Source of the DNA: Promethearchaeota archaeon
GTDB lineage: Archaea > Asgardarchaeota > Lokiarchaeia > Sigyniarchaeales > SOKP01
Assembly: GCA_019058295.1 (NCBI GenBank)
Contig: JAHPZI010000025.1
Location: 12,418-75,285 of the forward strand
Reading direction: 5' to 3'
DNA length: 62,868 bases
Below the pieces are notes generated by a model. That model did not search any database and was not told where the DNA came from. It worked only from the letters and a program-made list of their open reading frames with translations. A program made the position numbers and the translations under genes. Below are positions 22,792 to 29,153 of the stretch, in pieces (the stretch's first letter is position 1; each line of letters starts with the position of its first letter).

Positions 22792-22859
22792 TCCTTAATA
22801 TGAATAATGAGTGAATAAAATGATATGTTCTTTGGGAGAATTCATAAGATGGTGATTTA

Positions 22860-23927
22860 TTAACGAGTGTCATTGTTCCTTCGTATGCTTATCCATATGT
22901 TAAACTAAAAATTTTAAAAAGACTAATAATAGATGATGATACATTAAAAAAATTAAGTAGTATAGATGACATTGAAAATCTAATTAATACTATAAAACCA
23001 TTTTACCCCAATATAAAGATTCAAGAATATACAATAGAAGAAATTGAAAAATCTCTTTATGAAACATTCTTCAAATTAATTGGAAAAATTATATTTTATT
23101 CTCCTGAAAATATTAGACGTTTTTTAAAAGCTTATCTCCTGCAATTTGAAATCATGAATATTAAACAATGTATTTTAGGTTCTATTACTGGGATGAGTAG
23201 GGATCAAAAATTAAATAATATTAATTTTTTAGTCGAAGATTTTTTAGGTAATACTGATTTTATAAGAGATCTGATTGAAATTACATCTTTAGAGGAAATT
23301 CAATTATATATGAGAAAAACAAAATATAATAAAGCTGTGAGAGAAGGGATACTATATTTTAAAAATAACAATGCGATTTTCGTTCTGGAAGCGTTTTTAG
23401 ACCAGCTTTTTTATATAAATATGATTAAACAGAAGAGTTATTACAATAGAAATGAGAAAGAGCTGATAAATTTATATATTGATAGTATAACTGAAATTTA
23501 TAATTTAAATATAATATTTCGTGGAATAAGAAATAATATAGACAAAAATTTATTAACTCAATTTTTAGTTAACAATTTTCTATTTCTAGATGAAACAAAA
23601 ATCCTTCATCTATTATATCAAGATAATGTAGAAAAGTTTTTCTCATTGGTAAGGCAAATTTATTCAAATCAAAAAGATATTAAATTATTTTATAGAAAAA
23701 TTGGTTTCAGAAGAGAACATTTTATTTGGTGGATTGAGGGATTATATATTGATTATTTTTTTAAAAAATGCAGAAGTAAAATTGGTGATATTGATTATTC
23801 TGCTATTTTTACAATTTTAGAGATTTTGATAAAGAAACAAAAAGAAATACAATTTAATATAATTCCCAATGTTGTAAACATAATTCATGAAAAATTTACT
23901 AAATTAGAACAAGGTGAATTAAAATAA
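22860..23927 (+). CDS. atpC: A/V-type ATPase subunit C; N-terminus extends 98 codons upstream of ATG 23154
   Basis: Frame open from 22848; SYAYPYVKL N-terminal motif; FEIMNIK and EIYNLNIIFRG; GGTGA at 22851. Confidence 0.8.
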   Translation, partial: LTSVIVPSYAYPYVKLKILKRLIIDDDTLKKLSSIDDIENLINTIKPFYPNIKIQEYTIEEIEKSLYETFFKLIGKIIFYSPENIRRFLKAYLLQFEIMNIKQCILGSITGMSRDQKLNNINFLVEDFLGNTDFIRDLIEITSLEEIQLYMRKTKYNKAVREGILYFKNNNAIFVLEAFLDQLFYINMIKQKSYYNRNEKELINLYIDSITEIYNLNIIFRGIRNNIDKNLLTQFLVNNFLFLDETKILHLLYQDNVEKFFSLVRQIYSNQKDIKLFYRKIGFRREHFIWWIEGLYIDYFFKKCRSKIGDIDYSAIFTILEILIKKQKEIQFNIIPNVVNIIHEKFTKLEQGELK

Positions 23928-24238
23928 CAGAAATATTTAATTGGATAGAGGAAATAGAGAAGGTTTATGAAGATTTAATAAAAAAAGCTAAAGAAGAACA
24001 CTTATCAGAAATTAAAGCATTGATAAATAATCAAGAGAAGGATTTAGATTTAAATACCTCTAGCAAGCAAAATTTTGTAAATTCTATTTTAAAGAATCTT
24101 TCAGAGGAAATAAATGAAGGAATTAAAAATAATAGAGAAGCTTTAGATAAAATAATTAAAAAAATAGAAAAAAATTATCAAGAAAAAAAGAATGATTTAA
24201 TTAATTTAATATTGGAAAATTTAAGACTTGATTTTTAA
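23924..24238 (+). CDS. A/V-type ATPase subunit H/G; probable ATA start
   Basis: Charged helical ~104-aa ORF in the operon; AGGTGA at 23912; ATAA overlap with the atpC stop. Confidence 0.65.
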   Translation: MTEIFNWIEEIEKVYEDLIKKAKEEHLSEIKALINNQEKDLDLNTSSKQNFVNSILKNLSEEINEGIKNNREALDKIIKKIEKNYQEKKNDLINLILENLRLDF

Positions 24239-24558
24239 TGCCCGAAGAAAATATTCACATTATAGGACAGGATGAGATAGTTTTATTATATGAGCTTTTA
24301 GGAATTGATGGTACAATTTTGGATGATCCAAATAAATTTTTAGATGAATTTAATCAATTAATTAAAAATCCCTCAATTGGTATAATTTTTATCGCATTGA
24401 ATTTACCAGACACTATTATTGATTATCTCATTGATTTTAAGCTAAATAATAAAAAACCATTTATATATTACATACCAGACATATTTGAACTAAAAATTGA
24501 AGAAGAGGATCCTCTTTTAAAAACAATTTCAAAAATTATAGGAAAAATTCTAATATAG
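24238..24558 (+). CDS. atpF: A/V-type ATPase subunit F
   Basis: IHIIGQDEIVLLYELLGI, IGIIFI, YIPD. Confidence 0.85.
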   Translation: MPEENIHIIGQDEIVLLYELLGIDGTILDDPNKFLDEFNQLIKNPSIGIIFIALNLPDTIIDYLIDFKLNNKKPFIYYIPDIFELKIEEEDPLLKTISKIIGKILI

Positions 24559-27126: not shown

Positions 27127-28517
27127 GTGTAATCTACAATAAAATACAGCAAATCATAGGACCATTGATTTTTTTAAAAAATAATCATAACGTTCAATAT
27201 GGAGAAATTGTGAAAATATATACTAATGAGGGTAATATTCGTACTGGACAAGTTGTCAAAATAAGTGAGGATCTTATTATTTTAGAATCATTTGAAGGTA
27301 CCTCAGGATTATCATCTGAAAATTGTCAGATATTTTTTACAGAGGACTCATTTAAGTTAAGAATTTCAAATGATATGTTTGGAGGAACATTTAACTCTCT
27401 AGGAAAACCTATTGATATTAATCAGAAGGATGTAAGAGAAGCAAATATTTCAACTGATGTCGAGCGGGATATAAATGGATCTCCTCTTAATCCATATGCT
27501 AGAGAATATCCATCAGATATAATACAGACAGGAATTTCTGCCATTGATGGATTATTTACACTCATAAGAGGTCAGAAACTTCCTATTTTTAGTGGTCAGG
27601 GAATTCCTCATAATAAATTAGCGGCTCAAATTGTAACTCAAGCAAAGGTTCTAACAGAGGAACCATTTTTAATAATATTCTGCGGAATTGGAATCATTCA
27701 TGATGAGGCTATTTATTTTTTAAGGCGATTTAAAGAAAGTGGAAACATCCAAAATATCATCTCATTTATTAATTTTGCTAATGATCCAATAATGGAACGA
27801 TTAATTATTCCTAGGGTTGCCTTAACAACTGCCGAATATTTTGCATTTGAACAAGATATGCATGTCCTTGTGATATTAATAGATATGACAAATTATGCGG
27901 AAGCTTTAAGAGAATTAAGTTCTGCTAAAGAAGAAATTCCTAGTAGAAAAGGGTATCCTGGATATTTATATTCTGATTTTGCCTCCCTTTATGAAAGAAC
28001 TGGCAAAATAACAGGAAAGAAAGGTACCATTACCCAAATACCCATTTTAACTATGCCTAATGATGATATATCACATCCAATACCAGATACTACTGGTTAT
28101 ATAACTGAGGGTCAATTAGTTCTTAATCGAAATTTATATAAAAAAGGAGTATACCCTCCTTTCGATGTATTAGCTTCAATATCGAGGCTTATGAAGGATG
28201 CAATTGGTGAGAAAACAACAAGAGAAGATCATGCAGATATTAATTCTCAATTATTAGCCTCCTATTCAAGTGCGCTTGAAGTAAGAGATATTATTTCAAT
28301 TATTGGGGAAGATGCATTAAATTTAGAGCAAACTGCACTTTTAAAATTTAGTAATGATTTTGAGAATATTTTTTTAAATCAAGATTTTAATGAAAATAGA
28401 GATTTTAATACTACTTTAGATTTAGCTTGGAAGGTATTATCAAATCTTTCAGAAAGTCAATTATTTAGAATTCATCAAAGATTTATAAATAAATATTATA
28501 AAAAAAAAAAGGTGTAA
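27123..28517 (+). CDS. atpB: A/V-type ATPase subunit B
   Basis: [39 protein letters not shown]. Confidence 0.97.
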
Positions 28518-28520
28518 GCA

Positions 28521-29153
28521 ATAAGTTTTAGAGAAGTAAAACCAACCAAGACTAATTTGATAAATTTAAAGAAAAAATTGGGTTTTGCTAAAAGAGGAGT
28601 AACCTTCTTAGAGTATAAACGAGAACAATTAATGTTCCAAATCAGAAAATATTGGAAACAATATTTATCATATAGAAAAAAATATTTTAATCTATTTAGG
28701 ATTGCATTAATCACATTAAATCTTTCATACAAAGAAAATGGAAAAAGGATCTTTAATTTAATCAGTATATTAAGTAAAATTCAGTATGGTGTTTCAGTTA
28801 ATATAAACTACTATAAAGAATTGGGAAACCTTGTTCCTAAGATTGATTACAAATTTTTAAGAGAAGAAAAACTTCCACCATATTCATTTGAAAATACAAG
28901 TTTCCATTTAGATGATTTATATTCAATTTTAAAAGATCTCTTTACAAATGTTATTCAATTAGCTGAACGAGAAGATATTTTACTTAAATTGGCATTTAAT
29001 TTTAAAAACATTAATAGACGAATAAATAGTTTAAATAATATAATAATTCCCTCTCAAGAGATCGAAATTAAAAAGATTAAAGAAATTTTAGAGGAAAGTG
29101 AAAGAGAAAATTTTGTTAGATTGAAAAAAACAAAAGAATTAATTAATAAATAG
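28521..29153 (+). CDS. atpD: A/V-type ATPase subunit D; probable ATA start
   Basis: Conserved VKPTKTNL lies upstream of TTG 28557; RRINSL, ERENFVRLKK. Confidence 0.9.
   Translation: MSFREVKPTKTNLINLKKKLGFAKRGVTFLEYKREQLMFQIRKYWKQYLSYRKKYFNLFRIALITLNLSYKENGKRIFNLISILSKIQYGVSVNINYYKELGNLVPKIDYKFLREEKLPPYSFENTSFHLDDLYSILKDLFTNVIQLAEREDILLKLAFNFKNINRRINSLNNIIIPSQEIEIKKIKEILEESERENFVRLKKTKELINK

Follow-up and report, generated by a model that had tools for sequence, protein, structure and literature searches.

How does an archaeal ATP synthase operon begin four of its proteins when the reading frames offer no ATG, GTG or TTG at the place where the products should start? The question is raised by a 62,868-nucleotide stretch of a Promethearchaeota archaeon (contig JAHPZI010000025.1 of assembly GCA_019058295.1, positions 12,418 to 75,285, forward strand; hereafter the window, to which all coordinates refer), in which an A-type ATP synthase operon lies at 22.4-31.4 kb in the order K-C-H-F-E-A-B-D-I. 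The window comes from a Lokiarchaeia-type metagenome-assembled genome (MAG) of 3.2 Mb in 30 contigs (30.7% GC, 79% complete, with N-gaps), and one of its relatives within the order has a closed genome of 4.36 Mb. The operon was compared across two families, with 15 genomes from 10 genera of the family to which the MAG belongs (f1) and six of the sister family (f2), which includes the closed genome. Pfam recognised K, C, F, D and I, and A and B were identified through their strong conservation across the relatives. In the window, C, the H-like gene, E and D have proposed near-cognate starts, and A, B, F, K and I have canonical ones. For all four genes the coordinates given in an initial annotation of the window proved right throughout when the sequence was reread. 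Each has an in-frame stop 1-5 codons before the proposed start, and the next ATG, GTG or TTG is 13-98 codons further on. The proposed codons, ACG, ATA, ATT and ATA in operon order, each differ from AUG by one mismatch and lie 8, 7, 7 and 6 nt from a Shine-Dalgarno (SD) sequence. We consider it very probable that the four genes are intact and are started at ACG 22863, ATA 23924, ATT 24573 and ATA 28521 by SD-anchored near-cognate initiation.

The gene for A1 subunit C (atpC, 22863..23927, +) matched PF01992 and, in NCBIfam, AhaC (TIGR02923). Its frame begins behind TAA 22845-47, passes through GGTGA and then reads GAT TTA TTA ACG(22863) AGT GTC ATT, and its first canonical codon is ATG 23154, 102 codons past the stop and 97 past the ACG. 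The 98 open codons that the initial annotation had reported ahead of a canonical start were seen again, with a chance probability of about 9e-4. With stops making up 6.9% of triplets and canonical start codons 3.7% of sense codons in the source genome, long start-less open stretches are unlikely by chance and therefore represent coding sequence. Counted from the ACG, residue 7 aligned with position 4 of the AhaC profile; a phmmer search of subunit C against the PDB gave no match. The SD core GGTGA (22851..22855, +) lies 8 nt before the ACG and is complementary to UCACC of the 16S tail GGAUCACCUCCU, as read in relatives.

Alignment of orthologue N-termini singled out the ACG. The codon homologous to 22863 was ACG in 13 f1 genomes of eight genera and ATG in three (G008, G015 and G017), and it was ATT in the f2 genome G022. 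Of the 13 genomes carrying ACG, most had GGTG 7-8 nt ahead of it. An in-frame TAA stood immediately before the ACG in G012, and an in-frame stop was found one or two codons from it in G006, G013, G011 and G018. Of the two starts first considered for atpC, TTA 22860 and ACG 22863, the orthologues thus supported only the second: the codon preceding the ACG varied in relatives (TTA, CTA, CAT, AAG, TTT) and was a stop in G012, so TTA (22857 or 22860) was excluded. ATT 22872 was rejected as well, being absent in G004, G005 and G007 and 17 nt from the SD. In the source genome ACG accounts for just 10.6% of Thr codons, and C subunits are only ~50% identical across f1 genera. Because the ACG was kept across genera at this level of identity, and against the C-to-T mutation that would turn it into ATG, its persistence suggests selection acting on the nucleotides themselves.

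The central-stalk subunit D gene (atpD, 28521..29153, +; PF01813) exhibited an exchange of several codons. Its SD AGGTG (28510..28514, +) is followed by the same-frame atpB stop TAA 28515-17 and, 6 nt after the SD, by ATA 28521, from which the product would read on into S-F-R-E-V-K-P-T; no canonical codon comes before TTG 28557. Residue 5 from the ATA aligned with residue 3 of Thermus subunit D (3a5c_G). Among f1 genomes the homologous codon was ATA in four, ATT in five, ATC in two, ACG in one and ATG in two (G012 and G013), and in f2 it was ATG or TTG. The single ACG, in G011, comes immediately after a TGA.

The other two genes lie between C and A. For the gene assigned to peripheral-stalk subunit E (atpE, 24573..25295, +), TGA 24564-66 precedes ATT 24573, and the first canonical codon is TTG 24672. 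The SD of this gene, AGGAAGATGA (24557..24566, +), is degenerate, with a GATG that ends 7 nt before the ATT, and it is also present in the sister MAG G002. The homologous codon was ATT in most f1 genomes and ATG in G013. NCBIfam returned nothing for the product. The assignment comes from a profile of 14 orthologues, in which residues 20-206 aligned with chain positions 13-195 of Pyrococcus subunit E (2dm9; E=1.7e-6); the alignment begins ahead of TTG 24672, which corresponds to residue 34. The putative peripheral-stalk H/G-like gene (23924..24238, +), of 104 codons between C and F, has the SD AGGTGA (23912..23917, +), whose own TGA is the in-frame stop. Its frame opens at 23918 and meets its first canonical codon at TTG 24020. 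ATA 23924, 7 nt after the SD, overlaps the atpC stop TAA 23925-27. This ATA start was restricted to the window and G002; in the other relatives the next codon downstream, ACA in the window, is ATG. ATT 23918 was dismissed as a start because it is only 1 nt from the SD.

To place the operon in its genome, we counted codons following an exact GGTG that had at least 100 open codons in frame, an in-frame stop at most 15 codons upstream and no canonical codon within 10 codons downstream. Results showed a peak of ATA, ATT and ATC (ATH) at gaps of 7 and 8 nt (ATT 10 and 12, ATA 16 and 3, ATC 3 and 1; 45 in total), beside 51 canonical starts at the same gaps (30 ATG, 17 TTG and 4 GTG). The ATA peak at gap 7 is the spacing of the H-like gene. 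AAA, AAT, TTA and TTT occurred 0-2 times at gaps 7-8, and four control motifs gave no peak of near-cognate codons there. The ATH peak was sharper than that of ATG, which spread over gaps 5-11. When the SD was widened to any 5-mer of AGGAGGTGATC, ATG starts increased threefold and few ATH starts were added; near-cognate starts thus keep to the GGTG core. ACG starts were also found in a few other genes of the source genome. The initial annotation had ascribed the four operon starts to SD-directed initiation with relaxed codon choice, a reading that both the ATH peak and the codon swaps among orthologues (ATH, ACG and ATG at homologous sites) support.

A test independent of the SD used 58 open reading frames (ORFs) in which a coding-like leader runs through 30 or more codons without a canonical start. 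In 17 of them the first 25 codons included a near-cognate one preceded by GGTG at gap 6-9, and the internal control region contained 0 such codons; among ATG genes, GGTG at gap 6-9 was found for 34 of 959 (3.5%). Extrapolated from these 58 ORFs, near-cognate starts may serve roughly 5-10% of genes. Against such a rate, four non-canonical starts among nine operon genes represent a modest excess (binomial P 0.008 at a 10% rate), which bears out the clustering noted at the outset. A fifth non-canonical start in the window belongs to a hisA/hisF-type gene (49937..50662, -), with ATA at 50662 lying 7 nt after GGGGTGA. PF00977 covers residues 4-231 of its stop-to-stop frame (profile 1-227 of 228), and its first canonical codon comes 18 codons in. 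Four further window ORFs, at 90-671, 17964-18938, 33821-34606 and 58108-59205 (all +), run for 20-44 start-less codons past the upstream stop and lack an exact GGTG; one is an MGMT-type gene and another an ATP-grasp gene.

The frequency of these starts differed between lineages. For the closed f2 genome G026 (31.2% GC), a sample of 1.2 Mb gave 3 ATH and 29 canonical starts at gap 7-8, compared with 45 and 51 in the source genome (Fisher p=1e-4). The two genomes are nearly equal in GC and differ in their ATH rate, so AT-richness alone does not account for the habit. Five other genera, sampled over 800 kb, gave 6 ATH and 4 ACG against 9 canonical starts, which lends weak support, the sample being small and some of its contigs having been picked for the ATPase operon. 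The near-cognate habit appears to belong to family f1, where it is far commoner than in f2 of equal GC, and to be sporadic in f2. An f2 example was seen at atpK, where one homologous codon is ACG in G026 and G019 (7 nt after GGTG; loci L035 and L038), ATT in G022 (L034) and ATG in G030 (L039).

The machinery that would read such codons was inspected in relatives, from which that of the source MAG was deduced. The 16S tail was identical in both families (G016 and G026), initiator tRNA genes with the canonical anticodon stem-loop GGGCUCAUAACCC were identified in five f1 genomes with near-cognate starts (G005, G007, G011, G013 and G015), and aIF1 was present in 18 of 18 f1 relatives. A search of the relatives for altered machinery, namely loss of the initiator GGG/CCC stem, loss of aIF1 or a changed 16S tail, found none. 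The initiator tRNA genes of relatives contain introns at non-canonical positions, in the D-arm or T-arm, and keep a canonical anticodon stem-loop (loci L043, L051, L052, L053 and L060); because of these unusual positions ARAGORN misses most of them. A blast match to the initiator tRNA in the source MAG proved to lie in coding sequence. The MAG yielded a single tRNA(CAU) and, next to it, a tRNA-Ile whose anticodon is UAU (G000:C22:30857-31095, -); in archaea the decoding of AUA usually falls to a CAU tRNA that carries a modification. The tRNA-Ile(UAU) was rejected as a special initiator, since its anticodon stem is that of an ordinary elongator and it is unable to read ATT, ATC or ACG.

The gene of aIF1 itself follows the same pattern. 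In 16 of 16 f1 genomes (loci L070, L072, L074-L076, L078-L080 and L086-L093) the aIF1/SUI1 gene had no canonical codon between the in-frame stop and the N-terminal zinc knuckle. A conserved ATT or ATC stood three codons past the stop, usually a TGA inside AAGGTTGTGA, and aligned with ATG, TTG or ATA starts of f2 and f4. In Sulfolobus, aIF1 destabilises and rejects non-AUG complexes (PMC6237735). By analogy, the ATT/ATC start of f1 aIF1 may provide feedback of the infC/eIF1 type.

These results are consistent with the following mechanism. A GGTG(A)-type SD would pair with UCACC of the 16S tail, and the duplex would set a near-cognate codon 6-8 nt downstream into the P site, where the ordinary initiator Met-tRNA would tolerate a single codon-anticodon mismatch, presumably at the cost of lower output. 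Several observations weigh against this account, or against parts of it. The SD of atpE is degenerate (GATGA). The 16S, initiator tRNA and aIF1 genes were not found in the 79%-complete source MAG. An expectation-maximisation start model with 61 codons left free was noisy; it assigned 54% to ATG and ~8% to ATH, but also 1-3% each to GAA, TCA and TCT, spreading its mass over unrelated codons. The name of the H-like gene is putative, resting on position, size and sub-threshold family matches (V-ATPase_G E=0.027, AhaH E=0.065). At atpD the third-base spectrum of the start codon equals the neutral 4-fold composition, which suggests tolerance of these codons, not tuning, at this gene. The single-copy subunits F and I have ATG, which in part contradicts the idea that start codons set subunit ratios.

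Other explanations for the missing canonical codons were weighed against SD-anchored near-cognate initiation. If translation began at the first downstream ATG or TTG, the open upstream stretches would be untranslated; the 257-aa atpC product from ATG 23154 in public collections agrees with this, though it follows from the rule of a gene caller and is no sign of translation. Such starts would remove ~85 positions of the subunit C domain, the conserved V-K-P-T of D and ~33 residues of E, and they would leave without a reason the 98 open codons of atpC, the conservation of the upstream parts as protein across genera and the fact that stops occur only just before the proposed starts. We therefore regard downstream starts as highly unlikely. 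Errors of assembly or sequencing, or frameshifts, could in principle mask a true ATG in a MAG with N-gaps, and an ATG-GTG at 22849, one frame off, would join the atpC frame given one extra T. However, G002, an independent MAG, has the same four non-canonical codons, which rules out an assembly error; non-canonical codons are shared by independent MAGs of the genus and the family, the relatives are without the out-of-frame ATG upstream of atpC, and errors would not pile up 7-8 nt after GGTG across a genome. The chance that errors account for the four starts is very small.

Editing of the mRNA to AUG or an equivalent, by C-to-U change at ACG and A-to-I change at AUA, has a precedent in plant organelles, where ACG-to-AUG editing makes start codons. 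We know of no such mRNA editing in archaea; moreover, ATT and ATC, the commonest class, are not convertible to AUG by deamination, and a single site at which ATA, ATT and ATC replace one another in the third base fits direct reading of near-cognate codons, all of which makes editing very improbable. Termination-reinitiation is a somewhat different matter, since a ribosome retained after terminating on the upstream gene would need no proper start codon, and the starts of H, E and D lie 0-14 nt from an upstream stop. The atpC start, in contrast, is 72 nt from the atpK stop. Across the source genome only 12 of the 45 ATH starts were within 30 nt of an upstream ORF end, compared with 12 of 30 ATG starts behind GGTG, and the 33 that lay more than 30 nt away indicate no dependence on an adjacent upstream stop. 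Reinitiation is accordingly an improbable explanation, and the ATAA overlap of the H-like gene with atpC, once read as an analogue of ATGA-type coupling, is incidental.

The five remaining genes of the operon have canonical starts. The proteolipid c subunit gene atpK (22441..22791, +; PF00137) begins with ATG; a mechanical ORF list gives GTG 22432, which is part of an SD-like GAGTGA ahead of the gene, and the orthologues favour ATG 22441. The atpF gene (24238..24558, +; PF01990) starts at an ATG that overlaps the H stop (TAATG), and most of its orthologues have ATG. Both atpA (25282..27126, +) and atpB (27123..28517, +) begin with ATG, the latter in an ATGA overlap with the atpA stop, and the a subunit gene atpI (29167..31431, +; PF01496) has ATG as well. 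Start codons were invariably ATG for atpA (20 of 20 genomes compared), ATG in all but one of 20 genomes for atpB, the exception being TTG, and ATG or TTG among f1 orthologues of atpK and atpI. Under near-cognate initiation, subunit ratios may be set in part by weak starts for C, D and E, the stalk subunits of low copy number, and by ATG for the catalytic A and B and the ring subunit K. This proposal of the initial annotation stood in part: ATG starts A, B and K and is mostly absent from C, D and E, but F and I, each present in single copy, depart from the pattern. Tuning of stoichiometry by the start codon is plausible but unproven.

Related systems are known. Bacterial infC, with its AUU, and the ATT, ATC and ATA initiators of translation table 11 likewise combine a near-cognate codon, the initiator tRNA and an SD. 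Expression of infC is weak and depends on a fidelity factor whose own gene has the near-cognate start, as does f1 aIF1. The bacterial cases are isolated genes and the factor is IF3, whereas here near-cognate codons make up about half of strongly SD-led starts and an estimated 5-10% of genes, the factor would be aIF1, and ACG is also used and conserved. In eukaryotes, eIF1 autoregulates through a poor start context. Eukaryotic near-cognate initiation shares with the present case a similar mismatch set (ACG, AUU, AUA) and the homologous e/aIF1, but it relies on scanning and Kozak context, while here that role would fall to an SD duplex sharply spaced at 7-8 nt. The subunit ratios of ATP synthase are tuned translationally within one operon by proportional synthesis; there, as here, operon subunits are needed in unequal numbers, although in our case the start codon as tuning knob is a conjecture from which F and I fall out.

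Closer to this lineage, the tubulin gene AtubA of an Asgard MAG was described with a single "rare ATT start codon" (PMC13394414). As here, a GenBank truncation was rescued by an upstream ATT at a plausible distance from a ribosome-binding site; that report treated one gene as an oddity, without genome-wide or comparative analysis, ACG or aIF1. Reviews describe SD sequences as not prevalent in Lokiarchaea. In the literature we found no genome-wide account of near-cognate starts in this lineage. The conserved ACG of atpC, the orthologue codon swaps, the lineage contrast and the start of aIF1 are new.

One consequence concerns gene annotation. Prodigal-type callers accept only ATG, GTG and TTG, and so an estimated 5-10% of the proteins in these Asgard MAGs would be truncated or missed. 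For atpC the truncation expected from the outset was confirmed: public collections contain the 257-aa product, which is short by 97 residues, and the full-length product is absent. Such truncation distorts protein inventories and structure predictions in a lineage used to reconstruct the origin of eukaryotes. For initiation itself, the strongest SDs go with non-AUG codons, and their spacing is sharper than AUG would require; this suggests that SD strength and codon identity divide the work between them. More tentatively, f1 might be a family of lowered start-codon stringency, in which AUA, AUU, AUC and ACG are used regularly behind an exactly spaced GGUGA, some of them under selection, and an aIF1 with an AUU or AUC start of its own in every member governs their use; we think this possible, though rather less than probable. 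If true, regulated near-cognate initiation would have a precedent among prokaryotes close to the eukaryotic stem, and the autoregulation of infC and of eIF1 would have its counterpart in archaea. The ACG of atpC and the AUU or AUC of aIF1 offer concrete cases in which regulation at the level of the start codon may be studied in archaea.

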